Shown: positions 296 through 46,750 of the stretch, piece by piece
Numbering within the stretch: the stretch's first letter is position 1
How the letters are laid out: every line of letters starts with the position of its first letter
Source of the DNA: a virus
Length of the DNA stretch: 60,943 nucleotides
Virus record (IMG/VR): IMGVR_UViG_3300045988_155865
Span: 1-60,943 of that record
Strand: one strand, 5' to 3'
Translations under genes and position numbers: made by a program
The notes under the pieces: generated by a model
Database searches by the model: none
What the model was told of the DNA's origin: nothing
What the model saw: only the letters and a program-made list of their open reading frames with translations

Positions 296-560
296 TATTA
301 TACGTAATACATTATCCTTTGTTGTCCAAAGGCACTCTAAAATGCGGTTTCGGGAAGCCCTATGATAGTCTCGCTACTGGAGAATTGGACTGAATAATAC
401 GATCGGCAACTTTGGTTTTCGGGAGCGGAGAGAGCGCTAGAGAAGGCCAGAATGTCGCAAAATTTTGCCCTATGAGGTATGCGGTCGGGAAAACGGGCGC
501 TGGCTATGGTCAGCGACCCGATGAAATTAGCTTGGGTTAGCGGTCACTAACTCAAAATAA
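296..560. other. GC-rich island with repeated CGGGAA/AAACGGG motifs; possible structured RNA or foreign DNA at the contig edge
   Basis: Local GC is far above the surrounding ~30%. No ORF of 60 aa or more. Recurring gcggtttcgggaagccc, ggttttcgggagcgg and gcggtcgggaaaacgggcgc motifs. No tRNA cloverleaf could be folded. Confidence 0.3.
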
Positions 561-592
561 AAAAATAAGGTACTCGCCGGCTTGAGTACCTT
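552..592 (-). terminator. Rho-independent terminator (leftward transcript)
   Basis: Hairpin aaggtactc-gccggct-tgagtacctt preceded on plus by an A-run, which is a U-run after the hairpin on the minus strand. Confidence 0.6.
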
Positions 593-966
593 ATTAGTTA
601 AGACCGCACTTGCAACTGCGGAATACACTTATTCTTAGTCAAATAGAATATTTTTTAAAACCTTTCTATTAGTATATCCATTTTAATAAAGAAAATATGC
701 AAAAAGAATTTTTTTATAAGGTTTAGATAGTTTTATTTTAGAAACTTATCTATAAAACTAACCTCATTTCTACACTACTTTTTATTTTTTGAGGTATAGG
801 ATCAAAAAGTTAAAGTTTTTTATTGAGTAATCAGTTTTGCCCTGTAAGTAGCGCTTATTCTATTAGGGCAACAAGTATTAAACCTAACATAAAACACCTA
901 TTTTGATTTATTCCTACGGTGGAATTCCAAACTGAAACATTTTTATCAACTCCTTTTTACATACTT

Positions 967-995
967 ATTATATCACATTTCTAAGTATTTGTCAA
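967..995 (-). promoter_or_regulatory. Consensus sigma-A promoter (minus strand TTGACA-17-TGATATAAT) driving a largely non-coding transcript toward the terminator at 552-592
   Basis: Reverse complement reads agtattgacaaatacttagaaatgtgatataat. Only an 11-codon ORF (MFQFGIPP-TAG-E) follows the RBS. Confidence 0.5.
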
Positions 996-1017
996 TACTT
1001 TTTTTTAAAAAATTTTT

Positions 1018-1659
1018 TTAGTCATAAAACCCTGCATAGTCTATTAAAACAGGTTTATTATTTCTAAAACCATAATTATCTCTATGTAAATCATTTACTT
1101 TTTGTTTTCTTGTCCATCTACAAAATCTTTTTAAAAATTTTTTGCCATATAATTGCATAACTCTTGATAAAAAATAAATAGAAACTTGAGAATCATACAA
1201 GTGTCTTTTCGCATGGCAAAGAATATTATAACTCTTTGAGTCTTCTGGATAAATCCTTCTTGTATCATCATTTAATTTTTGCAAAAGATTACGATCAGCA
1301 CCCCTCCATGAATAACTATATTTTGGTTGTTTGTAAATAGGATATTTTGACTTGCCTAAAACAGCAATTTTTTCTATTGGCAATAAAATTTGTTCAATGC
1401 CCATTTTACAAGCTTGATGATAATTAGCTAACTCTATGGCGCAATAATCTGTATCAGTACTCTCAAAACGAGGCATTTTTAAAACATAATCATATTTTTT
1501 AAATAAAATACACCACCTTGTTGCACCATAATTAATTAATATTTCCTCATGATAATTTCCGCAGAGGGTATCTAAAAATTCTCCTGATAAACAGTCATAA
1601 CCGCCTTCATCAAGATACGTTTCAATATCAGTTAAAATTTGAGCAATTATTTTTTCCAT
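1018..1659 (-). CDS. Hypothetical early protein (213 aa)
   Basis: Complete ORF with TAA stop. Upstream consensus promoter at 1694-1721 and GGGGAAAT-type RBS. Confidence 0.6.
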   Translation of the reverse strand: MEKIIAQILTDIETYLDEGGYDCLSGEFLDTLCGNYHEEILINYGATRWCILFKKYDYVLKMPRFESTDTDYCAIELANYHQACKMGIEQILLPIEKIAVLGKSKYPIYKQPKYSYSWRGADRNLLQKLNDDTRRIYPEDSKSYNILCHAKRHLYDSQVSIYFLSRVMQLYGKKFLKRFCRWTRKQKVNDLHRDNYGFRNNKPVLIDYAGFYD

Positions 1660-1693
1660 TTTTATTTCCCCTTTCCCTTAACTTCTATAACTA

Positions 1694-1721
1694 TTATAGC
1701 ATAATTCGGGATATTTGTAAA
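1694..1721 (-). promoter_or_regulatory. Early promoter, minus strand (TTTACA-17-TGCTATAAT)
   Basis: Reverse complement tttacaaatatcccgaattatgctataat. This is a member of the repeated promoter family. Confidence 0.6.
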
Positions 1722-1868
1722 TAGTCAAATTGCACAAAAAATCGTTGAGATTTTTATTGAAAATGCGAATTGACAGAAATTCCGAGCGTGCGGATGGTGC
1801 ACGCTCGGCTCAAGGTTTTAGTATCTCTAACTAAAAGGGACACTAAAATAAATTTAGTGTCCCTTTCT

Positions 1869-2108
1869 TTATTTCAATTTTATTTTTCCACTTAAATTTT
1901 TATAAATGGGGTGATAACCGCCTTCAAGCTCAGGTGTAACAATGAGAATACAGTGTCTTGTACAAAACTCTTCTAAATCTTCAAGTTTTTTATTTGCAAT
2001 TTTAAGCACTTGTTTTCTCGACACTCTTGCTCGTTCAGCTTTAATCGCTTCAATGGCAATATTTAATTCTGCTTCTGATACATCTTTTAAAATTCCTATT
2101 GAGTTCAT
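1869..2108 (-). CDS. Hypothetical small protein (79 aa)
   Basis: ORF with TAA stop, sitting 14 nt upstream of the next gene as an operon pair. Confidence 0.5.
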   Translation of the reverse strand: MNSIGILKDVSEAELNIAIEAIKAERARVSRKQVLKIANKKLEDLEEFCTRHCILIVTPELEGGYHPIYKNLSGKIKLK

Positions 2109-2122
2109 AAAAACATCTCCTT

Positions 2123-2461
2123 TTATAAAATTATTTCATATTCACGTTTGATTTTAACTACTATTTTCTTAGGTTTTTGCTTACAACAAAATCTGTCATT
2201 CCGTACATACACACCAATTTGCTCTTGTCTAAATTTTTCTTTGTTTTTATCCTCGTATCTAAAAGTATTATACTTAGATAAAGGTAAAGACCAATCATAT
2301 TCAAATTCACTGTCCTGTGGCATTGTATATTGCTTAGCTCTGCGATAATTTATTGTATGTTGTGATTTTCTGCGTTTTAAATCGCTTGTAGTACCAATTT
2401 TTAAAATATAGTTACCTTTTGTATCAGTGTAATGTCCGATGTATAAAAATTCTTTTCCCAT
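2123..2461 (-). CDS. GIY-YIG domain protein (112 aa)
   Basis: N-terminus FLYIGHYTDTKGNYILKIGTTSDLKRRKSQH matches the GIY...YIG...R...H nuclease motif. Confidence 0.6.
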   Translation of the reverse strand: MGKEFLYIGHYTDTKGNYILKIGTTSDLKRRKSQHTINYRRAKQYTMPQDSEFEYDWSLPLSKYNTFRYEDKNKEKFRQEQIGVYVRNDRFCCKQKPKKIVVKIKREYEIIL

Positions 2462-2511
2462 ATAAATTCCTCACTTTTTGAGGAATTTTGGGCGATTTCT
2501 CGCCCTTTTCC

Positions 2512-2901
2512 TCATTTTTTTGGTTTTCTTTTCTGCACAAGAGTTAATTCAAATAAATTTTCGCCTATTTTAAAAGCAATTTGACGCTCTTTATTCGTAA
2601 TTTCGCAATTTTCTATGGCATTTTTACTATTTTTTTGCAAAAAATTAGCAATTTCTGCAATTAAATTTGCTTTTATTGGATTTTCTTTGCGTTCTCTTGT
2701 TACTTTTTTACCATAAGCATTGACCGCACGAACACCGCCTTTTGCCTTTTTTATTGCCTTTTTTTGTTCCTCTGTTAAATCATTATTGACTTGTCGCATA
2801 CCCATTTTATCGACTTGCTCATCTTCTTTTATTAATTCGATAGCTTCATCTCTTGTCAAGTCAAGCGTTTTCATCAATTCGGATATTTTATTTTCATTCA
2901 T
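2512..2901 (-). CDS. Hypothetical protein, paralog A1 of duplicated cassette (129 aa)
   Basis: About 45% identical to the 4192-4572 product (MxExxIxELMxTLDLTRxEAIELxxEDExVDKM...AIKKAKGG). TGA stop. Confidence 0.6.
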   Translation of the reverse strand: MNENKISELMKTLDLTRDEAIELIKEDEQVDKMGMRQVNNDLTEEQKKAIKKAKGGVRAVNAYGKKVTRERKENPIKANLIAEIANFLQKNSKNAIENCEITNKERQIAFKIGENLFELTLVQKRKPKK

Positions 2902-2961
2902 AATATCACCTCTGTTGAATTAATGATTGAGGAGGAGGGGAGATTATTCCCTCCTCCCATA

Positions 2962-3352
2962 TCAGGCAAGTTGGAAGTATGTTACTCTCTTGTCAACAAT
3001 TCTTTTAACCTCACCTGTTCCATCTTCTTCCTTCATTGAGCGAAGAATAGCCGATACTCGTTGATTTGAGAGTGGACTGATATGAACAATCGGCTCTGCG
3101 ATTTTCGCAAGTTGAGTTGCGGTGTAGAGTTTGTTCGGATTAGCCTTCATTTCCTCAAGAATAACTGTTTTAATCTCTCTATTTTTAACTTGATTAGCCG
3201 TAGGTTTATGATTTCCACCATTCTTGCGTTCAAGCAGTTCAATTTCGTGGGTAATGAACTTAACAAAATCTTCCCTATCCGAAACTTTTCCGTCATATGC
3301 AAGCATAGCTTTGAACATATCCTTTTTTGTTACCTTCTTGTTTGTCTTTGTC
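2962..3352 (-). CDS. Hypothetical protein, paralog B1 (about 130 aa, possible winged-helix)
   Basis: Paralog of 4604-4990 (shared FIxHEIELLERKNGGNxKPTA...TATQ...DGTGEVxR...KRVTYF). Start chosen at the ATG with GAAGGAG RBS. TGA stop. Confidence 0.6.
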
Positions 3353-3402
3353 ATATAAAACAACTCCTTCAAAAAATTTTTTTGTTTTGTAATCTCTCTT
3401 GA

Positions 3403-3441
3403 TTACATATTCATTATACCATACTTTGAACAGTTTGTCAA
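3403..3441 (-). promoter_or_regulatory. Early promoter, minus strand (TTGACA-17-TGGTATAAT)
   Basis: Reverse complement ggcttgacaaactgttcaaagtatggtataat. Confidence 0.65.
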
Positions 3442-3597
3442 GCCTTTTTTAAAACTTTTTTTATTTTTTTATTATCTTGCGTCTGTTCTCTATCTCTTTG
3501 GTACATTTATATTATAGCAAATTCTTAATCATTTGTCTATTGGCATTTTGCACAAATTTCGGGACAATATTTTTTTAATCTTTGGACAACTTTTCTC

Positions 3598-3626
3598 TTG
3601 ACAAAAAGTGTGAAGTGTGATATAAT
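3598..3626 (+). promoter_or_regulatory. Perfect consensus promoter on plus strand (TTGACA-17-TATAAT), convergent with the early genes
   Basis: cttgacaaaaagtgtgaagtgtgatataat. The predicted start falls at the conserved GAAATTCCGG hairpin element. Confidence 0.55.
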
Positions 3627-3632
3627 AGAAAT

Positions 3633-3684
3633 TCCGGTTTTTGCGCGTGAAAACCGGCGGGCAAGATTTAAAATCAAGCCCGCC
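3633..3684 (+). ncRNA. Candidate small RNA: GAAATTCCGG element plus two GC hairpins
   Basis: ccggtttt-tgcgcgtg-aaaaccgg and ggcgggc-N15-gcccgcc hairpins immediately downstream of the promoter at 3598-3626. The same element family recurs 8 or more times. Confidence 0.3.
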
Positions 3685-3691
3685 GCACTCT

Positions 3692-3928
3692 TTAATCGCT
3701 AAAATGATATTCCATTATATCATTTAACTCCTCAATGTATCCTTCAATGATTTCTTCTGAGGTGGCCAAACGCACATTTTTATATTCTTCTTTGTTTCTT
3801 AGAATTTTAAGGTCTGTTTTTAGCATGCCCATAAATTCTGTTAAACTGTCCTTAATATCATTTTTAACATTTTTTATAAGTTGATTAGTGTCTTGAGCCT
3901 CATTAAGATTTGCATTATAATCTTTCAT
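3692..3928 (-). CDS. Hypothetical protein (about 78 aa)
   Basis: ORF with TAA stop. Start set at MKDYNANL with AAAGGAG RBS. Confidence 0.5.
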   Translation of the reverse strand: MKDYNANLNEAQDTNQLIKNVKNDIKDSLTEFMGMLKTDLKILRNKEEYKNVRLATSEEIIEGYIEELNDIMEYHFSD

Positions 3929-4191
3929 TTTAATTACTCCTTTTCTTTTTTCTGTAATTACATTATAGCACATTATAGGAAAAATATCAATATACAAATT
4001 GCACAAAAATTACAACAAAAATTTATATAACCTGTCTATTGGTAAAATTCCGGGCGCTACGTATGTGCGCGCCCGGCTGACCGCATTTTCCTTTGCTAAT
4101 TAAAAATACAAAATGAGGGACACTAAAAATGCTTTAGTGTCCCTCATAATAGTCTTACCCATTGGAAACTTTTAACGTCCCCTTTTGGTGC

Positions 4192-4572
4192 TTATTTACG
4201 CGGTGCAGATAATACAATACGAAATCGTCTGCCATTCATATTGAAATCAATTTGCCTTTCAGGGTTTGTAATTTCAATATTCTCACAAGCAGGATCATCT
4301 CCACGGTGTAAAGTACTATATAACAAATTGATTAAGGTTCTTTTATCTTCATCTACCTTCCGCTCAACAACTCTCTTTTTTCCGAATGCGTCAACCGCCT
4401 TAGCTCCACCTTTAGCTTTCTTTATTGCTTGTTTCTGCTCTGCGGTCAAGTCGCTTTCAGTTTCTTTTACTGTCATTTTATCAACTTTCTCATCCTCTTG
4501 GACTAATTCAATAGCTTCTTCCCTTGTAAGGTCTAATGTTTGCATTAATTCAGTAATTCTTTTTTCGTCCAT
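4192..4572 (-). CDS. Hypothetical protein, paralog A2 (126 aa)
   Basis: Paralog of 2512-2901. TAA stop. Confidence 0.6.
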   Translation of the reverse strand: MDEKRITELMQTLDLTREEAIELVQEDEKVDKMTVKETESDLTAEQKQAIKKAKGGAKAVDAFGKKRVVERKVDEDKRTLINLLYSTLHRGDDPACENIEITNPERQIDFNMNGRRFRIVLSAPRK

Positions 4573-4603
4573 TACTCAACCTCCTTGCGGAAGAGTTGAG
4601 GGA

Positions 4604-4990
4604 TTAACCCTCAACTTCAACTCCCACTTTTTTGAAATACGTTACACGCTTTTCAGTGTATCTCTCAACTTCACCTGTTCCGTCTTTGCCCAAACCACGC
4701 AATAGAGCTGAAATACGTTGAGGTGTAAGTACGATTTCAGGAAAATCAGGTTCAATAGCCTTCATAATTTGAGTTGCAGTCATAGGCTTAACAAGAGCTT
4801 TAAGAATTTTTTCTTTAATCTTCTCATTTGCCATCTGTTGAGCGGTCGGTTTACGATTACCGCCATTCTTACGCTCAAGCAACTCAATCTCATGTTCAAT
4901 GAACTTCACTAAGTCAGCACGCTCTTTTACGCAATCCATAGCAAGCAACACCTGAAACATTTCCTTCTTTGTCATTTTCTTTTCTGTCAT
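4604..4990 (-). CDS. Hypothetical protein, paralog B2 (about 128 aa)
   Basis: Paralog of 2962-3352. AAAGGAG RBS and TAA stop. Confidence 0.6.
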   Translation of the reverse strand: MTEKKMTKKEMFQVLLAMDCVKERADLVKFIEHEIELLERKNGGNRKPTAQQMANEKIKEKILKALVKPMTATQIMKAIEPDFPEIVLTPQRISALLRGLGKDGTGEVERYTEKRVTYFKKVGVEVEG

Positions 4991-5108
4991 ATTGACCAAC
5001 TCCTTTAAAAAATTTTTTATTTATTTGTAAAAGGGTTTTGGTTGATAACCCCTCAACCCTTATTACTCTTATATTATATCATTCTTTTATTTATTTGTCA
5101 AGCCTTTT

Positions 5109-5576
5109 TTAAGAATTTTTAATTAAATCTTCAAGAAAATTTATTATATCTATCTCTGTTGGATTGACCGCAATTCTGCCCTTGTCATAATCATAAAAGC
5201 TCTCTCTTACATCAGCCGAATCGTCAAACAAGATTTGAATATCGCCTTCAGTGCATTTTTGTTTTGGTGTTCCATACTGAACGAGATGTATTTCCTCAAT
5301 CGGCAGCCCTGTTTTAGCAAGCCACTCTCTTTTTGCTTTGCGTACCGCATTTTTATAAGCCTGTGTGCTATTCATAGATAACCAACTTGTAATAGCAATC
5401 GTCCAACCTAACACCGCCAACTCATTTAATACAGTAGAGAGTTTATTCATATCGACCATAGGCTCTGCTATTTCATAAGGCATTGGATTTTCGGCTCTTA
5501 ACATTTCAAGCCAACCATCAACCCCATACAAATCTGCTATTGTACCGTCCATATCAAATATCAAAACTTTTCTCAT
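5109..5576 (-). CDS. HAD-superfamily 5'(3')-deoxyribonucleotidase-like phosphatase (155 aa)
   Basis: N-terminal LIFDMDGTIAD is HAD motif I (DxDGT). Size and fold are typical of NT5C-type nucleotidases. Confidence 0.65.
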   Translation of the reverse strand: MRKVLIFDMDGTIADLYGVDGWLEMLRAENPMPYEIAEPMVDMNKLSTVLNELAVLGWTIAITSWLSMNSTQAYKNAVRKAKREWLAKTGLPIEEIHLVQYGTPKQKCTEGDIQILFDDSADVRESFYDYDKGRIAVNPTEIDIINFLEDLIKNS

Positions 5577-5610
5577 TTTTAATTACCCCTTTTCTTTATT
5601 TTCTATAATA

Positions 5611-5638
5611 ATTATACCATAATTATTATTATTTGTCA
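5611..5638 (-). promoter_or_regulatory. Early promoter, minus strand (TTGACA-17-TGGTATAAT)
   Basis: Reverse complement cttgacaaataataataattatggtataat. Confidence 0.65.
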
Positions 5639-5648
5639 AGTATTTTTT

Positions 5649-6386
5649 TTAAATTTTTAAATTTTCTTTTAATTCCAAAAGACGCTTATTAATATATTCT
5701 TTATGGTGCTCTGTTGGAATGCGCCAACACGTTTTATTAATTGACTTATTAACTTTTTTGTGTTGAGCATAACACTTTGCCATTATCTGACATTCAATCA
5801 AGACATCCTGTAAGCCTTGATGTTCTTCTGTAAACTGTGTTTCATTTGTTAAGTAGCGGAAGCCGATTTCCGCAGACGTCCGCAGATTTCCAGAAGGTGA
5901 AAAATAATCATATTGAATAGCAAATTCCGCAAATCTTTTTTGTGTGTAGAGTAGTTGACAAGCCATATTCCAAATACAATTTATTTCCATCCCATAAGGA
6001 AAAAACCAACGATACTTTGACTTAGTAACATATCGCAAAGTAGTATTCAATGCGTTTATATCAAAGAATGCATTATAGGCGCAGATAGTCTTAATGTTAT
6101 ATTTTTCTATTGTATCTTTTATTATCCATCTTGCAAGTAATAAATCAACAACTTGCGATTGATGAGTTGATATTCTCTCAAGGTACTTTGGAATTTTTTT
6201 TGAATAATATGCGGTCTTCATAAGCTCTTTTTCAAAACAAAATATATCTCTTATAATAAGGCTTTTCTGTTCATATACATTTCCTTCCTTATCTACCACG
6301 GCATAACCTATATCATATACAAGTGGATACAAGGTATCATTCGCCGTTTCAACGTCAATAACTAAAAATTTCTTTTTTCTATTCAT
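5649..6386 (-). CDS. DEDDh-family 3'-5' exonuclease (DnaQ-like fold, 245 aa)
   Basis: LVIDVETAN (Exo I, DxE), AYNAFFDINAL (Exo II) and HQGLQDVLIECQI (Exo III, H-x4-D). Confidence 0.65.
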   Translation of the reverse strand: MNRKKKFLVIDVETANDTLYPLVYDIGYAVVDKEGNVYEQKSLIIRDIFCFEKELMKTAYYSKKIPKYLERISTHQSQVVDLLLARWIIKDTIEKYNIKTICAYNAFFDINALNTTLRYVTKSKYRWFFPYGMEINCIWNMACQLLYTQKRFAEFAIQYDYFSPSGNLRTSAEIGFRYLTNETQFTEEHQGLQDVLIECQIMAKCYAQHKKVNKSINKTCWRIPTEHHKEYINKRLLELKENLKI

Positions 6387-6525
6387 TTTTAAGCTCCTCT
6401 CCTTAACTTCTATAACTATTATAGCATACCTTTAATTATTTGTCAATGCTTTTTTAAAAAAATTTTTTCATCAAGTTGTACAAAATCGGGATTTCGCATA
6501 ATTAATATTTTGTTAAAATTGTCTA

Positions 6526-6554
6526 TTGACATTTTTTGTTGGATATGTTATAAT
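6526..6554 (+). promoter_or_regulatory. Perfect consensus promoter on plus strand (TTGACA-17-TATAAT)
   Basis: tattgacattttttgttggatatgttataat. Confidence 0.55.
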
Positions 6555-6560
6555 AGAAAT

Positions 6561-6650
6561 TCGGCGCGTGACACCCCATCACGCGCCGCTCAAGCTGACT
6601 AATTAATTTCAGCAAAAGGAAAGGAGGGGCAACTGCCCCTCGCTTATTTT
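6561..6650 (+). ncRNA. Candidate small RNA (about 90 nt): GAAATTCGGC hairpin plus intrinsic terminator
   Basis: cggcgcgtga-cacccca-tcacgcgccg, then gaggggcaactgcccctc and a U-run, all downstream of the promoter at 6526-6554. Confidence 0.4.
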
Positions 6651-6653
6651 AAC

Positions 6654-7727
6654 TTAGTTATTTGCAATTTCAAGTAGTCTTGCAATCTCTTTATCAATAA
6701 TTGAAAATAGTGTTGGTGATACATTTTTTACAGGTGTATTATTTATTTCTCTTGTTTCAACTGAACACTTAAACTCAATATTGTATCTACAAGTAATATA
6801 ACTCTTAGCTGGGTTTTTCTTTTTTCTTACAAAGTAAATAAGATTTTCCCCTTTTGCTATACTATCATGGTAAAAGCTACCTACGCAGTTATTTTGTTGT
6901 ATTCCCTCATCAGCAAAAGCTTCTAAAGTATGTGGTACAACAACCTGTAAATCATCAAGGTCAAGTTTTTCAAGGTCAAATATTTTTTCTTCTTGTATAA
7001 AAATAGATTTTTCCCTTTCACGGTCTTTTATTTTGTTTAGTTGTTTAACATTATAATCAAGTCCTCTATTATCATCATAATACAGTTCAAGTGTTGGACA
7101 AGCTCTTAAAAGATAACGCAAATCATAATAATCTCTTGGTATATTATAATTTTTTAAATCTACTTTTAAACTTTTTATCAATTTTTTTTGCATTAAAGTT
7201 GTTAATTCCCAAAAGTCCTCATGAAAACAGAAATAGTTGCAAAGAAGATGTATAAGTTTTTCATTTTCCTCTTTATTGCCAGATAAGGATAAGGCTGTCT
7301 TATACTCTTTATAAAATTGAAAAGTTTTATAAGAAATTTTATAGCCATTTTCTTTTAAATATTTAATATAACCCTTATCCATTTTTATATCATAAAGACT
7401 ATTGACATAATCACCTGCTTGCCGACCTGTCAAAGCCTCTGTATCAAGTAAATCAGTGTATGAAAACCATTGTTCTAATCTTGTTAAAAGTATTTTATCA
7501 CTCATCATATAACAAAGATCTTTTGCACCCATAATCAATCCATATGCAACCTCTTTATATAAATTTATATCTGCATTTTCGGCATATCTCAAAAAATTTT
7601 TTACAAGAATTTCTTTTCCACTTACGCCAATAGCTTTTTTTGCATTAAAATCATATATTGCAGTTTTATTGTTATCAAAACCGAATATCAATAAATTCTT
7701 TTCCTTACTAATACTTGTCAACATCAT
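6654..7727 (-). CDS. PcfJ-like domain protein (357 aa)
   Basis: C-terminal EGIQQNNCVGSFYHDSIAKGENLIYFVRKK resembles the PcfJ-like signature. The family assignment is from memory. Confidence 0.4.
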   Translation of the reverse strand: MMLTSISKEKNLLIFGFDNNKTAIYDFNAKKAIGVSGKEILVKNFLRYAENADINLYKEVAYGLIMGAKDLCYMMSDKILLTRLEQWFSYTDLLDTEALTGRQAGDYVNSLYDIKMDKGYIKYLKENGYKISYKTFQFYKEYKTALSLSGNKEENEKLIHLLCNYFCFHEDFWELTTLMQKKLIKSLKVDLKNYNIPRDYYDLRYLLRACPTLELYYDDNRGLDYNVKQLNKIKDREREKSIFIQEEKIFDLEKLDLDDLQVVVPHTLEAFADEGIQQNNCVGSFYHDSIAKGENLIYFVRKKKNPAKSYITCRYNIEFKCSVETREINNTPVKNVSPTLFSIIDKEIARLLEIANN

Positions 7728-8167
7728 TTTAATTACTTCCTTTCCTCTTCCTTTGATATATCTATTATATCATACTTTGTTTTGTTTGTCAAGAGATTTT
7801 TAAAACTTTTTTTATTTTTTATAACCTATCTCTTATCCCTCTCTCATTTTCTATAATTATTATAACGCAAATAGAGAAAAAAGTCAAGAGTTTTGGGAAA
7901 TATTTTTATTGTTATTTTGCACAAGTTTTCGCTTAGATTTTTATGTAGTTTGCCTATTGACGTAAATTCGGCTCGCAGCGCCCAAGTGCGAGCCGCTGAG
8001 ATTTTATCAATTAATAATTTCGTATAAAAAAATAAGGGTAAAACCCTTATTTTTAAAAAAGTGATACAATTCTTTCTGCTATTAATGCGAGCGTATCAAT
8101 CATCATAGGCATATTTAAAATTTTTACCATAGCCATTGCCATTTTCCGCATTTTAATCACTTCCTTT

Positions 8168-8353
8168 TTAATTAAATATTATTCTTAGTAAGAAGATAAT
8201 TCCATAAATTATTAAGACCAATTTCCAAGAGAATATTGCTATTGGAATGATTAACAATACCAACCAAACCACTAAAGCAATAATACCAAATATAATTGCT
8301 TCCACGAATAACATATCCAATATTACTTTTAAAAATACTAAAAATTCAAACAT
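8168..8353 (-). CDS. Small membrane protein (about 61 aa, two predicted TM helices)
   Basis: MFEFLVFLKVILDMLFVEAIIFGIIALVVWLVLLIIPIAIFSW. AGAGG RBS. Confidence 0.5.
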   Translation of the reverse strand: MFEFLVFLKVILDMLFVEAIIFGIIALVVWLVLLIIPIAIFSWKLVLIIYGIIFLLRIIFN

Positions 8354-8423
8354 TTTAATTACCTCTTTCTTAATTTCTATATTTATTATAGCATAATTAT
8401 TATCATTTGTCAAGTGTTTTTTA

Positions 8424-8573
8424 TTAAATTGCCCAATATTTTTTTATATTATATTTATAAGTATCATCATTTTTTTCTGCCATTTGATTAATCCACTCTT
8501 GTGCTTTTTTACAGGTGGTATAAACCCCTTTAATTTCATCAGTATATACATCTATTACTATAAATACATCCAT
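8424..8573 (-). CDS. Hypothetical small protein (about 49 aa)
   Basis: ORF with GAGGAAAG RBS and upstream promoter. Confidence 0.4.
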   Translation of the reverse strand: MDVFIVIDVYTDEIKGVYTTCKKAQEWINQMAEKNDDTYKYNIKKYWAI

Positions 8574-8613
8574 TGTTCTTTCCTCACTTTCTATAATTAT
8601 TATAACATAGTTG

Positions 8614-8892
8614 TTATGATTTGTCAAGACTTTTTTTACGATTTTTCATCATATTCTCAACAAAAGCCTTTTTCCTATCTTCTGCCCCATATGGTCGATA
8701 TTTATATGAGGTATAACCTTCCGCATATAAGTCGTCTGGTGTTTTATAACGTTGTTGAGCTATCTTTGTAATTGCCTTTTTAACATATGCGGCTTGATTG
8801 GCTTTAAAATCTGCCATATTAGCAACCTCTATAACAGTAGCTACTGGACGAAACTTTTTTCCCTCGTGAAACATTGTTACTTGAATTTTCAT
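8614..8892 (-). CDS. Hypothetical protein (about 92 aa)
   Basis: ORF with AAGGAGTGG RBS and TGA stop. Confidence 0.5.
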   Translation of the reverse strand: MKIQVTMFHEGKKFRPVATVIEVANMADFKANQAAYVKKAITKIAQQRYKTPDDLYAEGYTSYKYRPYGAEDRKKAFVENMMKNRKKSLDKS

Positions 8893-9035
8893 AAAGACCA
8901 CTCCTTAAACTCTATATTGACTATTTTATTTTTTTTAACATATTTCTTTTTATAAGGTGCGCAAGGGGTTTTGCTCTCCTCATAATACTCTGCCTTTATG
9001 TTACATATTTTTGTTTCCTTATACTCTGTTTTCAT
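8889..9035 (-). CDS. Hypothetical small protein (about 48 aa)
   Basis: AAGGAGGAA RBS. Start overlaps the stop of the downstream gene (ATGA). Confidence 0.4.
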   Translation of the reverse strand: MKTEYKETKICNIKAEYYEESKTPCAPYKKKYVKKNKIVNIEFKEWSL

Positions 9036-9332
9036 TTTTAATTCCTCCTTTACTGTACTTATAGTATACCATATTTCAGGAAAACTGTCTATTGGCATTT
9101 TGCACAAATTTTGCTTTCAATTTTTATGCAATCTGCTACTTGCCAAAAGTCCGGCGCTAGCGTTGGATTTACATTACCGCTAGCGCCGGACGAACGCAAA
9201 TTAGACATAGCTGCCTATGTCTAATCTACGAATTAAGAAAGATATATTATTATAAAGGAATGAATTACCATATATAACCTACCTTATAGGATAAGGAGGG
9301 CGGGGCAGACAGATTTTTCTGCCCCATTTGTT

Positions 9333-9431
9333 AGTTATTAGCTTTCTCAAGTTCTCTGCCAGCTTTTATTGCTTGCTTGCTTTCAAGTCCATATTTATTG
9401 CAAATTTTAATAAATTTTTCATATGTCATTT
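9333..9431 (-). CDS. Tiny ORF (32 aa) behind a consensus promoter
   Basis: Promoter ttgacaaataataaaagatatgttataat, then AAGGAAAGGAAG RBS. GC hairpin at the 3' end. Confidence 0.3.
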
Positions 9432-9511
9432 TTATTACTTCCTTTCCTTAACTTCTATATATATTATAACATATCTTTTATTATTTGTCAATAGTTTTTT
9501 AAAAAATATTT

Positions 9512-9913
9512 TTATTTTAAAAATTCAACTATTTCATAATCTGTAACAATATTTTTAAAAAGTGGAGTTTCTTTGATAATTTTTTCTATTTTTACTTTTG
9601 AGTTTGCTTTTGCCTTCGCATAAGTTAATTGGTCTACTGTAAAATAATGGACATTTCCATCCGCAAATTCAACATATATATTAAATTCTTCTGAATGGTA
9701 AGTGCTTCCTATCGTTTTGCCAGGTATCCCTCTGCGATGGTTAATTGCTTTAGTATGTTCTACGTTTGTAATTTCACAAACTTCATAAGTTGTTTCTATT
9801 GGTTTACTGCATAATTTTTCAATTTGTAGAGTTGCAGATAAACATATAGTTAAAATAATTATTCCTATGAATGTATTTATAATAATATCAATAGCATTAA
9901 TTTTTCTTTTCAT
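9512..9913 (-). CDS. Secreted or membrane-anchored protein (133 aa, N-terminal signal/TM)
   Basis: MKRKINAIDIIINTFIGIIILTICLSATLQ hydrophobic N-terminus. TAA stop. Confidence 0.55.
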   Translation of the reverse strand: MKRKINAIDIIINTFIGIIILTICLSATLQIEKLCSKPIETTYEVCEITNVEHTKAINHRRGIPGKTIGSTYHSEEFNIYVEFADGNVHYFTVDQLTYAKAKANSKVKIEKIIKETPLFKNIVTDYEIVEFLK

Positions 9914-9942
9914 TTTTCATTACCTCTCTATCTTTTTTCTTA

Positions 9943-10260
9943 TTAGCAATATATTAAACCCATGTTTCTCCAACTTAATATTGAGATTTGAGCATTTGCC
10001 CTGCCAATAATAAGAGCCTGTTTCTTGGTACTCTCTCTATGTGACTTGTCTATATAGTAAATACCATTAGCAAACCAAACACCGCAATTACCATTATATG
10101 CTTTAATCGCCTTCATTGCTTTCTGTTGGTCTGTTGTTTCTATGCCTTCTGTTGCTACTTGATAACCTGTTTTATAAGTTATGATTTTACCATTCTTTAA
10201 AGTTAAACCATCATTATCTTGTAGTTTTCTTAGAGTTCTAATATTAATCATTTTTTTCAA
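9943..10260 (-). CDS. Hypothetical protein (105 aa)
   Basis: Complete ORF with upstream promoter-like element. Confidence 0.5.
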   Translation of the reverse strand: MKKMINIRTLRKLQDNDGLTLKNGKIITYKTGYQVATEGIETTDQQKAMKAIKAYNGNCGVWFANGIYYIDKSHRESTKKQALIIGRANAQISILSWRNMGLIYC

Positions 10261-10381
10261 TCCCTTCTCTTATCTTGATCACATTATATCATCTATTGCG
10301 ATATTTGTCAATAGTTTTTTAGAAAAAAAGTTGCACAAATTGGGATGCAGATTTTTGTGTAATATTTGTATAAATTTTCTC

Positions 10382-10410
10382 TTGACTTTTATGGCAAGGT
10401 GTGATATAAT
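10382..10410 (+). promoter_or_regulatory. Perfect consensus promoter on plus strand (TTGACT-17-TATAAT)
   Basis: ttgacttttatggcaaggtgtgatataat. Confidence 0.55.
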
Positions 10411-10416
10411 ATTTCG

Positions 10417-10473
10417 AGCTGTCTCGATTCTTGCGGGCGCAAGAAAAAAAAGAGTGCTTTTACACTCTTTTTT
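10417..10473 (+). ncRNA. Candidate small RNA (about 60 nt) ending in an intrinsic terminator
   Basis: atttcgagctgtctcg..gcgggcgcaag, then aaaagagtgcttttacactctttttt (hairpin plus U-run). Confidence 0.4.
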
Positions 10474-10696
10474 CCCTCCATAAAGTACGAATTAAAGCTT
10501 CAATCTCTTCGATTATTGACTTAGCTTCTTCTTCTATCATCCTTTTACTCTCTATTGAAATATTGTTAACGTATTCAAAAATGATAACACAATCTTTTTC
10601 ATCATTATAAAAATCTAACTTATTATAATAAACTCTTATTAACTGTTCATTTATTATAAACAAATCATTTTTAATTTTTATAGGATAAATTTCCAT
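10460..10696 (-). CDS. Hypothetical protein (about 78 aa)
   Basis: ORF with GGAAAGAGG RBS. Bidirectional terminator at its 3' end. Confidence 0.45.
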   Translation of the reverse strand: MEIYPIKIKNDLFIINEQLIRVYYNKLDFYNDEKDCVIIFEYVNNISIESKRMIEEEAKSIIEEIEALIRTLWREKRV

Positions 10697-10715
10697 TTTT
10701 ATCAACCTCTTTCCT

Positions 10716-10831
10716 TAAAATGGGCAAGTAACAATTCTCATTGTAATTTCCTCACCAAGCATTTCCCAAACCTCGGCAATAAGTTTATGAAATGTAAATT
10801 CACCTGTGTTTTTATTGATATACATAATCAT
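10716..10831 (-). CDS. Tiny ORF (about 38 aa)
   Basis: AAGGAGGAAT RBS with ATG. Low confidence because of its small size. Confidence 0.25.
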
Positions 10832-10871
10832 TTTAATTCCTCCTTTATTTGTTGTTATTCTTATATCCCTG

Positions 10872-11033
10872 TTAAGCAGGGATATAAGAAACTAACTTAC
10901 CACGTTTTTGTTCTTCTCTTTTTAGCTCTGCGGCACTCAATCCATAAACCCAGCCTTGTGAGCCGTCCGCATATTCATAATAAAAACCTCTACCTTTGTT
11001 ATTTCCTTTAGTCCATACCTTCATTTTAATTAC
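10872..11033 (-). CDS. Small protein (about 53 aa)
   Basis: Promoter ttgacaaaacgcagagagtatgctataat, then AAGAGGTAAT RBS. Confidence 0.35.
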   Translation of the reverse strand, partial: VIKMKVWTKGNNKGRGFYYEYADGSQGWVYGLSAAELKREEQKRGKLVSYIPA

Positions 11034-11104
11034 CTCTTTTCTTAATTTCTATATTTATTATAGCATACTCTCTGCGTTTTGTCAAGCCTTTTTTTAAAAT
11101 TTTT

Positions 11105-11347
11105 TTAAAAAACTTTTAAAATTATTAAGGCAAGTGTTATTGCAAAGAATGTAATATCTTTTGTTTTATCTGCGATAGGTCTTTTTAAAACAAATTGTCT
11201 TGCAACTCCGATTCCATTTGCTACAAGATATAAACACTGAGCAAAGATATAAAAATAACCGACAGTAATTTGACCAATAATGCACAACACAAGATTGATA
11301 TATCCTATCCATTCCCAAGCTTTTGTATTATTCATAATAATCCCCAA
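11105..11347 (-). CDS. Small membrane protein (80 aa)
   Basis: Multiple hydrophobic segments (WEWIGYINLVLCIIGQITVGYFYIFAQCLYLVANGIGV...). Confidence 0.5.
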   Translation of the reverse strand: MGIIMNNTKAWEWIGYINLVLCIIGQITVGYFYIFAQCLYLVANGIGVARQFVLKRPIADKTKDITFFAITLALIILKVF

Positions 11348-11489
11348 ACCCTTCTGTAATAAATTCTTTTCCTTTATCTTGATTACATTATATCATAACT
11401 ACTACACTTTGTCAATGACAGAATAGTAACAATTACATTACAGCTGTGTTACAAATTGTTATTTTTTTAACAATCTTTCTACCACAATC

Positions 11490-11521
11490 TTACAAAAAGA
11501 ACAGGCTTTTAAGCCTGTTCT
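11490..11521 (-). terminator. Rho-independent terminator
   Basis: agaacaggc-tttta-agcctgttct, with a T-run following on the minus strand. Confidence 0.55.
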
Positions 11522-11542
11522 TAGATAAGAAGGAAAAAACAA

Positions 11543-11701
11543 TTATTTTGTTATTAGCTTAGTCATTAAATTAAAATTAGAATACTGTGGATTCTCATGA
11601 GTGTTCTTTGCAAGTATTTCACCATAGCAACACACAAGATATACAATAATTAACAGTACTGCAATATTAGACAACCCTTTTCTTACGTTCCACTTAGCCA
11701 T
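11543..11701 (-). CDS. Small membrane protein (52 aa)
   Basis: MAKWNVRKGLSNIAVLLIIVYLVCCYGEIL... Preceded by the promoter at 11736-11764 and an AGAGG RBS. Confidence 0.45.
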   Translation of the reverse strand: MAKWNVRKGLSNIAVLLIIVYLVCCYGEILAKNTHENPQYSNFNLMTKLITK

Positions 11702-11735
11702 TCCTCTGCACCTCTTTCCTCTTGACTACATACTC

Positions 11736-11764
11736 ATTATACCATAGATTAGCATTGCTGTCAA
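11736..11764 (-). promoter_or_regulatory. Early promoter, minus strand (TTGACA-17-TGGTATAAT)
   Basis: Reverse complement ttgacagcaatgctaatctatggtataat. Confidence 0.6.
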
Positions 11765-11835
11765 TGACAGATTGGTTACAGTTATATTACAATTGTGTTA
11801 CATTACTCTTTGTGCATGTTGCACAAACGACTAGA

Positions 11836-11961
11836 GTTAGCCTTAGCTAACTAGAGTCAGTATAGTTAGCTTAGACTAACAGGTGTCAGATATTGGGAAT
11901 AGCAGTTAGTATAGGCTAACCCGAGTTGCCGGTGTAAAATTTTGGTTAGACCCTACTAACC
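11836..11961. promoter_or_regulatory. Array of four inverted repeats GTTAG(C)-N4-7-(G)CTAAC (candidate operator or origin iterons)
   Basis: gttagccttagctaac (11836-11851), gttagcttagactaac (11865-11880), gttagtataggctaac (11905-11920), ggttagaccctactaacc (11944-11961). Confidence 0.5.
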
Positions 11962-12140
11962 AAAAATTCGGTGCGCTACAGTCGCAACCGCACCGCTGAA
12001 TCGAAATATATATTTTGGGATTGCTTGTCTTATGAAACGTGCCGATTAAGTACAAAGATTTTTTGTGTTAGAGCATACGGTCGGAAATTCGGAGCACTAC
12101 GCTGATAACTATAATTATCGGTAGTAACTCTTTTAGCGCA

Positions 12141-12302
12141 TTAGTTCACTTTATTATCTTTCTCTGATGATAATAAATCTAATGGCTTAGTACACTTACA
12201 TAGATCCTTTGCTTCACATTCTGCACAATTGCAGCCTTCGTGATAAGCGCATACGTCTATCAGTGTGTCGATGGCTTCCTTTACCTGCTCTGCATAAGTC
12301 AC
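12141..12302 (-). CDS. Cys-rich small protein (53 aa, GTG start)
   Basis: MTYAEQVKEAIDTLIDVCAYHEGCNCAECEAKDLCKCTKPL. AGGAGG RBS. Confidence 0.4.
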   Translation of the reverse strand: MTYAEQVKEAIDTLIDVCAYHEGCNCAECEAKDLCKCTKPLDLLSSEKDNKVN

Positions 12303-12848
12303 AAGACAAGCCTCCTCTCTTCTTTATTTTTATTAGAAAGGATAATACAATATTCAATTGTTTATCTTATGTATATATAATATCAAAAATTTTTATAAAA
12401 ATCAATTAAGAGATTGCCAAGCTAATACAATGTGTTATCCAGTAGTGAGTATGTAAATAGTGGACTGCGGTTGGTCGCTTAGTGTTTGCGTGTATGTTAA
12501 GGTATAAACTACATTGTATGTGTATGTAGATTACTTGCACTAGGTGAACCGATCGGCGCGCACTTCTTCTTTTATCTATTCGTATAAGTATACATTCATG
12601 CTCATTACTACACGCACTCTTTGCTACTGGATTATAATGCGCTTGTTTATTATTACATTAGTTTGTCGCCCGTACCATCAGCTTTACTACTGGGGCTGTT
12701 TTACCCCGCGTCATTAGGTGGAGCGATATTTGCTCAGCTAAAAGTGCGACAATAGGTAGTTAATATTTTACTCAACTGAAAGACCGGGGGGGGTGTTTTC
12801 GGGAGAAAATTTTTTTTGACTTTATGTTTTTTATTTGGCTGACAAAAA

Positions 12849-12907
12849 AAATTTCTAAAAGCATTTTCATTCCTAAATACGGTGGAGAAATTTCTAAAAG
12901 CACTTTC
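12849..12907 (+). repeat. Two 20-25-bp direct repeats (AAATTTCTAAAAGCAYTTTC) 39 bp apart, upstream of the late operon
   Basis: aaatttctaaaagcattttc at 12849 and aaatttctaaaagcactttc at 12888. A TGTATAAT -10-like element with a poor -35 follows at about 12932-12939. Confidence 0.5.
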
Positions 12908-12993
12908 GTTTTAATAATAGTTGGGTAAATATGTATAATTTCAATAGTCTTTTTTTTATATATTATATAAAGTAGTGTAAAGGAGGCTATATA

Positions 12994-14825: not shown

Positions 14826-14832
14826 TATAAAA

Positions 14833-14870
14833 GGGTATGAGATTTTTATCTCATACCCTTATTTTATTTT
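14833..14870. terminator. Bidirectional intrinsic terminator
   Basis: gggtatgagat-tttt-atctcataccc flanked by an A-run and a T-run. Confidence 0.65.
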
Positions 14871-15119
14871 GTCAATAAGTGCTTGCGGAAGGTCGACTCC
14901 AAGTTCTTCAAGGACTGCTTTTGCGGTTTCATAACGAGGATCTACAAAATCGCTTTTACTTATTCCTATACATTTAAAGTCTTCACCCTCAATGAAATAG
15001 AAGTCCATCTCATCACCTTCCATAATTTTTAATCTATCACGTAAGCCTTTTGGAATTATTATTCTTCCAGATTTATCTATTTTTCTAATTGCGTTTTCTT
15101 TCTAACAATTAAGATTCAT
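14859..15119 (-). CDS. AbrB/SpoVT (swapped-hairpin) family regulator with in-frame TAG at codon 6
   Basis: GGAGGAAAATAAAAATG start. MNLNC-TAG-KENAIRKIDKSGRIIIPKGLRDRLKI matches the AbrB/MazE DNA-binding motif. Confidence 0.55.
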
Positions 15120-15555
15120 TTTTATTTTCCTCCTTATCACAATGCCCAAAACAAAAACACTCAAATGAACATTGCTTATTTATATCGTCACAAGGTCTAA
15201 TATCTTTAATTAAATCAAAAGGTAAATTGAAATCTTCTTGATATTTTATAATATCTTGATACTGACCATGTTTTATAAAATAATTAAGTATAAAATTATT
15301 TTTTTGTTTATTATAAGTTTTTTCATATTCTTTGATTTGCTTTAATTTTTCTTTATCTTCTTCGCTGTAATCTTCTGCCATAATAATTGGCATCCTCCAA
15401 CGCTCTCCAGAGCCATTCTTTATCCATTTATTATATTTTCTCCAAATTTCATTCTCTAAGACAAGTGGACTTGTTATATTATTTTCTGCGCAATAGTCAT
15501 CAAATGCGGCATTAGCGCAAAATATCAAAGCATTATAGTTATTTAACTCAATCAT
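15109..15555 (-). CDS. Hypothetical protein (about 148 aa), upstream in the same leftward operon as the AbrB-like gene
   Basis: ORF with AAAGAAAGAG RBS. Its stop overlaps the AbrB-like start region. Confidence 0.45.
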   Translation of the reverse strand: MIELNNYNALIFCANAAFDDYCAENNITSPLVLENEIWRKYNKWIKNGSGERWRMPIIMAEDYSEEDKEKLKQIKEYEKTYNKQKNNFILNYFIKHGQYQDIIKYQEDFNLPFDLIKDIRPCDDINKQCSFECFCFGHCDKEENKNES

Positions 15556-15623: not shown

Positions 15624-15652
15624 TTGACAAAAGAAAAATTTTCTGGTATAAT
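15624..15652 (+). promoter_or_regulatory. Consensus promoter on plus strand (TTGACA-17-TGGTATAAT)
   Basis: tttgacaaaagaaaaattttctggtataat, followed by GGAGGG RBS and ATG at 15683. A divergent minus-strand promoter is adjacent. Confidence 0.6.
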
Positions 15653-15682: not shown

Positions 15683-16744
15683 ATGATTAAACTTGATTAT
15701 TCTTTAGAAACTCCAGAAGAACGTAAATTGTTAGTAGAATAGATATTAGAAGAAGTAGAAAATCCTTCTCCTCAATACTTAGAAATTTTAGCTAACTATT
15801 TAATTCTTTGCATGGAGAAACAAGAAAGAAAAGAGAACAAAATTATTACAGAAAATCATTTAGTGACAGTAAATAAAAGAGAAACTTCTTTCGAAGGTCT
15901 TGTTTCCCAATTTGAAAATGGCGAAGATGGAATTTATAATTTGATGACAAAAAATAAAAATATAATATTTCAACCAAAAAAATCAATTACAAAATAGGAT
16001 TTAGAAGAAATACAACCGTTAAGACAATTAAAAGAAGCTATTGATTTGTGGGAAGCAAAATTAAAAACAGTTAAAGGAAAAGACGCCTTTATAATCAAGT
16101 CAGCTTTAATAGAAATGCGAAAAGATTAGTATGTAATAAAAAATGCTTATAGACAACCTATTGTGACAACTAAATTAACAAGAACTAAATATTTTCCAAA
16201 ATTAGATGAAAATATTACTTTTGATAAAGATGGATATTGCGTTCCGACCGGTGTAACGTGTATAGATCCTCGTATATGCGAAACTGCATTATGTAATTAC
16301 GCAAAATTAAAACAAGTATCAGAAGGCAACTTTGAATCTGATTTATGGTATTTTATGTTTGATTTTGATCAATTATTAGAAAAAGCATTAAAAGATGAAC
16401 CTTTGTATAGGCGAATTGTTCAATATAAGATTGAAGGTTTGCAGAATGAAGAAATTTAGAAAGCTCTTTAGGAAGAATTTAATATGACGCATACTGTTGA
16501 ATATATCTCAAGCTTATGGAGAAATAAAATTCCTAAAATGATTGCGTCAGTAGCAGAAGATGAGTATTTGCAATGGTATTATCTTAATGAAAAAAAAGGC
16601 AAGTATAAAAGATGCAGTAGATGTGGGCAAATTAAATTAGCTCATAGCAAGTATTTTTCAAAAAATAAAACAAGCAAAGATGGATTCTATTCTTTATGTA
16701 AATGTTGCAGAAATGCAAGAGCAAAGTTAAAAAAGAAAGGATGA
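15683..16744 (+). CDS. Hypothetical protein with C-terminal zinc ribbon (about 354 aa); amber-recoded
   Basis: Single frame through four sub-ORFs of the track, TAG-only interruptions, TGA stop. C-terminal CSRCGQ...CKCCRNARAKLKKKG. Confidence 0.5.
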
Positions 16745-19752: not shown

Positions 19753-19818
19753 AGTGGGGTTTTTTTAAATAATTTAATATAAATAATTTTTAAGAAACAT
19801 ATGAGAGGAGGTTACTTT

Positions 19819-31166: not shown

Positions 31167-31220
31167 CAAATGAAAAATTTTTTGATATAATTATATAAAG
31201 AGATAAAGGAGGCTATTAAA

Positions 31221-46724: not shown

Positions 46725-46750
46725 TCATAGGAGAGAAAGGAGAAAACATT

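Follow-up and report, generated by a model that had tools for sequence, protein, structure and literature searches.

Stop-codon recoding occurs in phages (Ivanova et al. 2014, as cited in PMC7886860), and in gut phages it has been described as partial and biased towards late genes (Yutin et al. 2021, PMC7886860; Borges et al. 2021/22, bioRxiv 10.1101/2021.08.26.457843). Block-wise dual coding, under a model in which the standard code is used first and an alternative one later, was likewise reported with Mgcod (bioRxiv 10.1101/2022.06.29.495998). In recoded gut phages, TAG is read as glutamine (Gln) with a phage-encoded suppressor tRNA, recoding is concentrated in structural, lysis and late blocks, the other genes remain compatible with the standard code, and early genes are proposed to be expressed in the host code before the suppressor enables the late ones. 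Homing endonucleases are heavily recoded in these phages, and their clades mix recoded and standard-code members. The same traits recur in the phage behind the DNA analysed here, the 60,943 nucleotides of IMG/VR virus record IMGVR_UViG_3300045988_155865 (hereafter the window, meaning this whole stretch; GC content 30%), in which a leftward block of small genes contains no TAG codon and a rightward arm of structural genes is rich in them. The dual-code early/late model is the published one and is not new. What differs here is the lineage, an SPbeta-like siphophage with a probable Bacillota host as opposed to crAss-like, Lak or Garnet phages, together with the coincidence of the code-neutral block with an array of perfect sigma-A promoters and the presence of TAG-free capsid and major-tail genes within the late arm. 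Relative to published work, three aspects appear to be new: this coincidence of promoter array and code-neutral block, the position of the suppressor tRNA at the leftward-arm border that separates genes lacking TAG from genes carrying it, and the clade-wide avoidance of TAG in capsid and major-tail genes. The terms 'capsid', 'sigma' and 'promoter' do not occur in the searched text of the Borges preprint, and no mention of TAG-free capsid or major-tail genes was found in the sections of the recoding literature consulted.

By capsid identity (50%), the closest annotated relative is phAss-1 (OQ749652; proposed Phassvirus, placed by NCBI in the 'Caudoviricetes code 15 clade'), in which TAG is recoded to Gln (Babkin et al. 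2023, PMC10607447); Enterococcus phage EF1 follows at 37%, and SPbeta-like Staphylococcus phages and Bacillus phage Kirov reach 23–27%. Besides the meaning of TAG, phAss-1 shares with the phage studied here tRNA-Sup-CTA genes, including an 88-nt form with a long variable region, a large set of tRNAs, a tape measure of ~3,000 amino acids, a rightward recoded structural arm opposite a long leftward arm with consensus promoters, and a TAG-poor capsid region. Its three suppressor tRNAs all lie on the promoter-bearing leftward arm. The results and discussion of the phAss-1 paper (PMC10607447) report interrupted open reading frames (ORFs) and contain no analysis of an early/late code partition, of promoters or of a TAG-free capsid gene. 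The two phages share no nucleotide similarity and differ in GC content (30% here versus 44.5%) and genome size (~156 kb here versus 136 kb). Since there is no megablast match and the GC contents differ this much, while the three proposed members of Phassvirus share 80–86%, the phage described here is, on sequence comparison, not a Phassvirus. Its genome size, tRNA cluster and tape measure (155,695/156,767 bp, 16 tRNAs and 2,883 amino acids) nevertheless fit the phAss-1/SPbeta-like group (~130–160 kb, ~3,000 amino acids), and it probably represents an SPbeta-like siphophage of the code 15 clade of phAss-1. The late operon of SPbeta, from yonK onwards, has the same gene order, the YonG_N, YonD_N and YonB families and a giant tape measure gene after them; in a relative with 70% identity, the orthologues of the rightward genes match Pfam YonG_N, YonD_N and YonB. 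The yon operon was shown experimentally to be a late operon transcribed by the phage RNA polymerase YonO (Forrest et al. 2017, PMC5467207), and it is because of this homology that we call the rightward arm late. Unlike the phage studied here, SPbeta uses the standard code, and the late arm of the window differs further in carrying two host-type consensus promoters.

The early leftward module (1018–11764, minus strand) comprises 23 small genes, from 1018–1659 to 11543–11701, arranged in short operons behind consensus sigma-A promoters, with a coding fraction of 0.73. Their 2,578 codons include no in-frame TAG, and they end in TAA (20 genes) or TGA (3 genes), never in TAG. The initial annotation had described a TAG-free block with these two stops, which stands; its tally was about 25 genes and roughly 2,400 codons, and its limits of 560–12302 are better set at ~564/1018 to 11764, as the ORFs it included at 11906–12302 lack promoter or ribosome-binding-site support. 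The trinucleotide itself is not absent from the early genes, as it occurs in them 78 times out of frame. When the minus strand was tiled into frames closed by TAA or TGA only, the count of TAG was still zero, so the result does not arise circularly from a gene definition in which TAG closes the ORF. The gene starts used are backed by an independent gene caller applied to near-identical contigs and by promoter and ribosome-binding-site positions, and this caller returned an identical early gene set. The 82 early Gln codons would all escape TAG with a probability of 2e-18 (Fisher test of early versus late genes, 1e-19). TAG-ended genes were also sought in the block, and the only such ORFs are a mini-ORF at 940–917 and those at 3537–3677, 6523–6615 and 9089–9208; the last three have no Shine-Dalgarno sequence and run across promoter/terminator spacers, and all four look non-genic. 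With TAG present neither as a codon nor as a stop in the 23 genes, the earlier proposal that the early genes are readable by an unmodified host holds. The block is not foreign DNA, because its synonymous codon usage correlates with that of the late genes (r=0.97) and its GC content is equal to theirs (30.7% versus 30.3%).

Perfect TTGACA-17-TATAAT sites, all of them TG-extended, occur 17 times in the window, against an expectation of 0.08, and none of 100 shuffled sequences reached this number. Thirteen of the 17 lie on the minus strand within 967–11764, ahead of TAG-free genes, with first hexamers starting at 995, 3441, 5101, 5639, 6446, 7792, 8413, 8627, 9491, 10311, 11085, 11415 and 11764 (TTGACA-17-TG-TATAAT). 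Each is preceded by an A/T-rich tract and followed by a ribosome-binding site and an ATG, mostly at a distance of ~25–35 nt (~50 nt at 3441 and 11415, ~75 nt at 5101). To the right of 11764, minus-strand promoters matching 11 or more of the 12 positions are absent from the window. The TAG-free block thus looks like a region transcribed early by the host RNA polymerase, the label early being given because 13 perfect sigma-A promoters with ribosome-binding sites precede its genes. Perfect leftward promoters also number 18–20 per 10 kb in the 70%-identity relative, and phAss-1 has 23, all on its leftward arm, so that the array would constitute a very strong and conserved signature of early transcription by host RNA polymerase in the clade.

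The recoded late module (12931–58929, plus strand) contains 30 genes, all ending in TAA or TGA; no gene in the window terminates at TAG. Among their 14,249 codons there are 267 in-frame TAG (1.87%, ranging from 0 to 4.6% per gene), and TAG accounts for 39% of CAA+CAG+TAG; the initial annotation had estimated a few percent of codons. When TAG is treated as a sense codon, the longest open frame increases from 377 to 2,891 amino acids and the total open-frame length more than doubles; treating TGA in the same way has little effect. The genes matching PHROG profiles for portal, terminase-like, tape-measure and other virion structural proteins are intact only if TAG is sense. The module holds the terminase-like gene (17965–19752), the portal gene (20231–21769), the head genes, the tape-measure gene (31876–40527; 2,883 amino acids, 77 TAG) and the genes for large tail and baseplate proteins (40695–55854), all on the plus strand. 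The per-gene count of in-frame TAG on both strands, which the initial annotation had put forward as a check, gave a density far from uniform (early genes 0, late genes 0–4.6%), and its contention that the genome does not follow a uniform code is borne out, TAG corresponding to Gln in the late genes and being absent from the early ones.

The residues found opposite the TAG codons of the window in ten related contigs (40–75% protein identity) were Q in 132 cases, TAG in 80, S in 54 and K in 47; Gln is ~5-fold above background at these positions, and Leu and Tyr are depleted. On this alignment evidence, TAG is read as Gln in the late genes. The regions outside the window were read on a 96.4%-identical IMG/VR contig, so that ~105 kb of the genome were covered in all. 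Judging from its matches, the window is a ~61-kb part of a ~156-kb gut phage genome: its capsid-like protein is 100% identical to a protein on IMGVR_UViG_3300045988_163776 (155,695 bp), which has 96.4% nucleotide identity to the window across 14.3 kb and represents a separate strain, and an ENA contig (156,767 bp) also encodes one of its early proteins. On the leftward strand of the 96.4%-identical contig, outside the window, there is a cluster of 16 tRNAs, the last of which has the anticodon CUA (L068 10818–10905, contig ~144,887; ARAGORN, with 57.7 bits for the Rfam tRNA model). This suppressor tRNA lies ~35 kb downstream of the divergent region along the leftward arm and has its own TG-extended promoter of sigma-A type (11 of 12 matches) ~70 nt upstream. 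The amber suppression that had been proposed to be driven by the phage thus finds its gene, complete with a near-consensus promoter of its own, in the 96%-identical genome. The tRNA is 88 nt long, has a 15-nt insertion in the variable region that is kept in the suppressors of a relative (L064 20648–20735) and of phAss-1 (62445–62532), and ends in 5' UGGGG and 3' CCCCA-G, which are the ends of the phage's own tRNA-Gln(UUG). Its flanking genes encode an HNH endonuclease, tail-fibre-like proteins, a peptidase and a radical SAM protein. Jade-type phages have a code-change module of suppressor tRNA, tRNA synthetase and release factor next to the lysis genes; here, no release factor or aminoacyl-tRNA synthetase was seen among the genes flanking the suppressor tRNA or in the ~105 kb examined. 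For an 810-amino-acid gene just 3' of the suppressor tRNA, an identity as YonO-like late RNA polymerase has nothing in its favour: the gene has no PHROG match, and its neighbours are a collagen-like tail fibre and a peptidase. Within the tRNA cluster, ARAGORN also predicted two tRNA-like genes (L068 4968–5040 and 7013–7087) whose anticodon loops are odd, one having four bases ('gatt') and the other two ('aa').

Along the genome, TAG usage changes with position on the leftward arm and with gene class. To the left of the window, another ~22 kb of the leftward arm, ending at the suppressor tRNA, contain hardly any TAG, so that nearly all leftward genes upstream of this tRNA (~34 kb) lack TAG; those past it, encoding a collagen-like tail fibre, a peptidase and a radical SAM protein, carry it. 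To the right of the window, the genes for DNA polymerase III alpha, guanylate kinase, NrdD and dUTPase contain sparse TAG. TAG per codon is 0.2–1.6% in these replication genes and 1.5–4.6% in structural genes, and it is zero in all 23 early genes. The description of the rest of the genome as amber-dense is accordingly right for most late genes and wrong for three TAG-free genes of the late arm and for the ~22 kb of nearly TAG-free leftward genes. Strand alone does not set TAG use either, since three minus-strand genes at 58945–60793, the distal end of the long leftward arm, which converges with the late arm, contain 10 TAG in all: two in 58945–59403, one at codon 9 of a RuvC-like gene (59476–59952) and seven in the 282 codons of a GIY-YIG homing endonuclease (59945–60793). 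The nrdD gene to the right of the window (L021 3609–6852) is apparently split by an HNH endonuclease gene, which suggests an intron or intein; phAss-1 has a suppressor tRNA next to nrdD, and there is none here.

Within the late arm, TAG is avoided in the genes of the virion proteins with probably the highest output. The probable major capsid gene (23832–24923, plus strand), which is YonB-like and matches phrog_4088, has no TAG among its 14 Gln codons, and its orthologue in a relative matches PF27364 YonB. Its plus-strand neighbours are also TAG-depleted (one TAG in 23143–23811, none in 25015–25581), and a virion structural protein gene (28779–29756, plus strand; phrog_2729), probably encoding the major tail protein, has none. 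Taken together with two neighbouring head genes, these three TAG-free genes (the head-core and tail-tube group) carry 4 TAG in 63 Gln-type codons, against 263 of 620 in the other late genes (Fisher test, 1e-9). This pattern is conserved: capsid orthologues are TAG-free in 10 IMG/VR relatives, those of 28779–29756 are so in six of seven relatives, and in 17 recoded relatives binned into metagenome-assembled genomes (MAGs) TAG makes up 2 of 214 Gln-type codons in the capsid gene and 1,152 of 3,580 in its neighbours. It was also noticed that the capsid-like, adjacent head and major-tail-like genes are nearly TAG-free in ~27 recoded relatives, their neighbours having 1–4% TAG. Such avoidance in the highest-output virion genes points to a cost of suppression.

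We consider it likely that this is an SPbeta-like phage with a TAG-free early module, whose later, TAG-bearing genes await a suppressor. Host RNA polymerase would fire the consensus sigma-A promoters of the immediate-early module (1018–11764), which an unmodified host, with active release factor 1 (RF1) and no suppressor, would read correctly; later suppression would leave the early proteins unextended, because no early gene stops at TAG. The suppressor tRNA(CUA), ~35 kb down the same leftward arm, would be made from its own near-consensus promoter. The products of the TAG-bearing genes (terminase, portal, tape measure, tail and fibre proteins and homing endonucleases, and more sparsely the replication enzymes) would be needed later, and we infer an expression order in which they reach full length only once the suppressor, whose level would be rate-limiting, has accumulated. 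The capsid and major tail genes, encoding the highest-copy products, would stay TAG-free, likely because suppression competes with termination and costs yield. The TAG partition, the reading of TAG as Gln, the promoters and the suppressor tRNA gene are conserved in relatives. In the 70%-identity relative, where early-block conservation was followed through the flank of the gene at the yonH position, 15 small leftward genes are TAG-free, the rightward genes are recoded and YonB is TAG-free; as these early genes are other ones than those of the window, the TAG-free state appears to be maintained while gene content turns over.

Several observations weigh against this account. The genome shows a gradient of TAG rather than a two-state partition, and upstream of the suppressor tRNA there are exceptions to the TAG-free state, namely one TAG in a gene for 469 amino acids and 10 in that of an HNH homing endonuclease. 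Three late genes (23832–24923, 25015–25581 and 28779–29756) have no TAG, so the absence of TAG does not by itself mark early genes. Two perfect sigma-A promoters (15624 and 31163) stand in the late arm, and the transcription classes are therefore not cleanly separated; the labels early and late themselves were assigned from promoters and homology. The suppressor tRNA was located in the 96%-identical strain, and the window itself has no tRNA gene by ARAGORN and no match to Rfam. This tRNA also has the unusual 15-nt insertion, and the single pointer to its charging with Gln is the Gln-like acceptor end.

The graded density would be expected if translation efficiency, and not timing, were responsible: suppression would be slow and in constant competition with RF1, and TAG would be purged from genes that are translated fast or abundantly and drift in elsewhere without any regulatory role. 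This view is favoured by the TAG-free capsid-like, adjacent head and major-tail-like genes in the late arm, conserved in 10 and 17 relatives, and by the fact that the TAG-free early genes all stand behind consensus promoters of maximal strength. Yet all 23 early genes have zero TAG regardless of their size, the ~22 kb of additional leftward genes are TAG-free although most of them lack strong promoters, the leftward arm passes from genes without TAG to genes with it at the suppressor tRNA gene, and TAG is in excess as the first Gln-type codon of recoded genes, a weak signal found post hoc. Efficiency in place of timing is for these reasons unlikely in our judgement, but the two explanations are compatible and both are probably operating. 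A split between lysogenic and lytic functions, in which the TAG-free genes would be those that have to work from a prophage in an unmodified cell (immunity, exclusion and moron genes), is suggested by the temperate nature of SPbeta, to which this lineage is related, by the TAG-free integrases of recoded prophages (Garnet, Topaz) described by Borges et al. (bioRxiv 10.1101/2021.08.26.457843), and by the many small early genes with unassigned functions. We regard it as improbable: the ~105 kb examined showed no integrase, repressor or attachment site, the related contigs of 124–176 kb resemble free phage genomes without flanking bacterial genes, and 13 unregulated consensus promoters suit an early lytic burst better than expression in the prophage state.

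Even less credible is that the block was recently acquired from a standard-code phage as part of a mosaic, or that it lacks TAG by compositional chance. The early proteins have no detectable relatives beyond near-identical genomes, and the absence of gene 1018–1659 from the 96%-identical strain shows that the block is fluid, as a mosaic origin would have it. However, codon usage correlates with that of the late genes at r=0.97 with equal GC content, the promoter type of the early block recurs at 15624 and 31163, TAG occurs 78 times out of frame in the early genes and its absence in frame has a probability of ~1e-18, and the 70%-identity relative has different early genes that are TAG-free as well. 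An origin through composition or horizontal transfer is rejected in view of the composition and of the conservation of the TAG-free state across differing gene contents. The timing reading, with TAG-bearing genes waiting for the suppressor, thus remains the one that we prefer.

The early block is poorly characterized in terms of function. Profile searches assigned a family only to a PcfJ-like gene (6654–7727), a phrog_20187 gene (5649–6386) and, with a weak match, a T5orf172 gene (2123–2461), all on the minus strand, and none to the other early genes; an IMG/VR search for relatives of one early protein returned the same genome only. Gene 1018–1659 (213 amino acids) is missing from the 96.4%-identical IMG/VR strain, and the block therefore holds strain-variable cargo and is evolutionarily fluid. 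A two-gene cassette is duplicated in tandem on the minus strand (2512–3354 and 4192–4990), with amino acid identities between copies of 53% (2512–2901 versus 4192–4572) and 55% (2962–3354 versus 4604–4990). Opposing the early genes, plus-strand promoters with consensus or near-consensus sequence are found at 3598–3626 and 6526–6554 (both perfect) and at 10382–10410, the one at 6526 being followed by a terminator at 6624–6641; they may give rise to antisense transcripts or very short RNAs.

At the left edge of the block, a minus-strand unit (564–995) consists of a perfect promoter (995–967), a ribosome-binding site, a mini-ORF and a strong terminator (595–564). The mini-ORF (MFQFGIPP, 940–917) ends in TAG at 916–914, and read-through would add one codon before TAA at 910–908; it is the only site in the block where TAG follows a start codon supported by both promoter and ribosome-binding site. 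The ~320 nt between it and the terminator contain no ORF. The unit has a fold z-score of -2.96, matches no Rfam family and is possibly a non-coding RNA or leader; that a Pro-Pro-TAG leader peptide could sense termination or suppression at TAG is pure speculation. At the opposite edge, the divergent spacer between the two arms (11765–12930) has no supported genes. Directly before the -35 hexamers of the two early promoters farthest to the right, a 44-nt direct repeat (11410–11453 and 11759–11802; 84% identical and rich in TGTAAC/TGTAAT) forms a putative operator, through which early transcription might be regulated.

In the rightward arm, a perfect sigma-A promoter (15624–15652) stands immediately before a recoded gene at the position of yonH (15683–16744, plus strand; 353 amino acids, 5 TAG, the first at codon 20), which precedes a YonG-like gene and the terminase; its PHROG label, 'sigma factor', is unverified. 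Homologues of this gene number 6,411, and related contigs run into the hundreds. The second perfect promoter of this arm (31163–31191, plus strand) stands before 31221–31751 (2 TAG) and the tape-measure gene. A small leftward unit of two genes (14859–15555) is embedded in the arm and ends at a bidirectional terminator (14831–14860): 15109–15555 encodes 148 amino acids without TAG, and 14859–15119 encodes an 86-amino-acid protein with an AbrB/MazE-type DNA-binding domain and one TAG, relatives showing a weak MazE_antitoxin match at the latter position. Homing endonucleases are among the most TAG-rich small genes, as exemplified by an HNH-type gene between terminase and portal (19801–20175, plus strand; 4 TAG in 124 codons) and one near the suppressor tRNA (L061 19740–20711; 10 TAG in 320 codons), and Borges et al. 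describe a similar tendency for an intron endonuclease. Among 29 recoded genes, TAG is the first Gln-type codon in 16, where 10.9 would be expected (P ~0.03, post hoc), and the last in 11, a count used as a control; it is not significantly enriched within the first 10 codons (P = 0.28) or the first 25 (P = 0.08). This bias is a weak, post hoc hint of selection for an early translational block. TAG is found within codons 3–9 in several genes, including those starting at 13353, 20231, 26443, 27461, 52967 and 59476.

When the early block and the late block were compared by near-identity megablast with INPHARED (50,697 phage records), neither gave a match. Among GTDB genomes, a first scan for a host was empty and a second returned 56 MAG-binned contigs from incompatible taxa with no clear integration. 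The bins of these relatives are mostly Bacillota MAGs, but they also include Bacteroidales, Treponema and Methanobrevibacter, an incompatibility that indicates mis-binning and makes the binning unreliable. The related contigs (124–176 kb) resemble free phage genomes that were binned into MAGs, with flanking bacterial genes in none of them. This clade of MAG contigs (L070–L125) mixes recoded members (0.9–2.7% TAG in late ORFs) with members nearly devoid of TAG (0.05–0.4%), and both kinds have similar capsid identity; the code state therefore shifts over short distances, as in other recoded phage clades. The window begins with a simple repeat rich in TA (1–270), and three independent assemblies (L012, L013 and L014) stop 3–3.4 kb to the left of it, as might be expected of a region full of repeats or of a physical end of the genome. 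The 3–3.4-kb stretch in between contains an opposite-strand gene with TAG (235 amino acids, 8 TAG).

The genome described here is a statistically unambiguous two-code phage genome from a lineage that had no prior analysis of early/late code partition. Annotated with the standard code, such contigs yield their early and capsid genes, and nearly everything else is shredded. With its promoter-marked code-neutral block, separately promoted suppressor tRNA and TAG-free capsid and major-tail genes, this phage is a good test case for the idea of a code switch as a timer. We advance, tentatively and with more doubt than conviction, the stronger proposition that amber codons are the primary timer and not a back-up to transcriptional control. 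Host promoters at 15624 and 31163 would then supply mRNA of the 15683 and 31221 units from the start of infection, and TAG codons alone would hold back the corresponding proteins until the separately promoted suppressor tRNA has accumulated, the same system being tuned for yield through the clade-wide TAG-free state of the highest-copy virion proteins. If this were true, decoding capacity would be a quantitative regulator of both the timing and the stoichiometry of phage gene expression.

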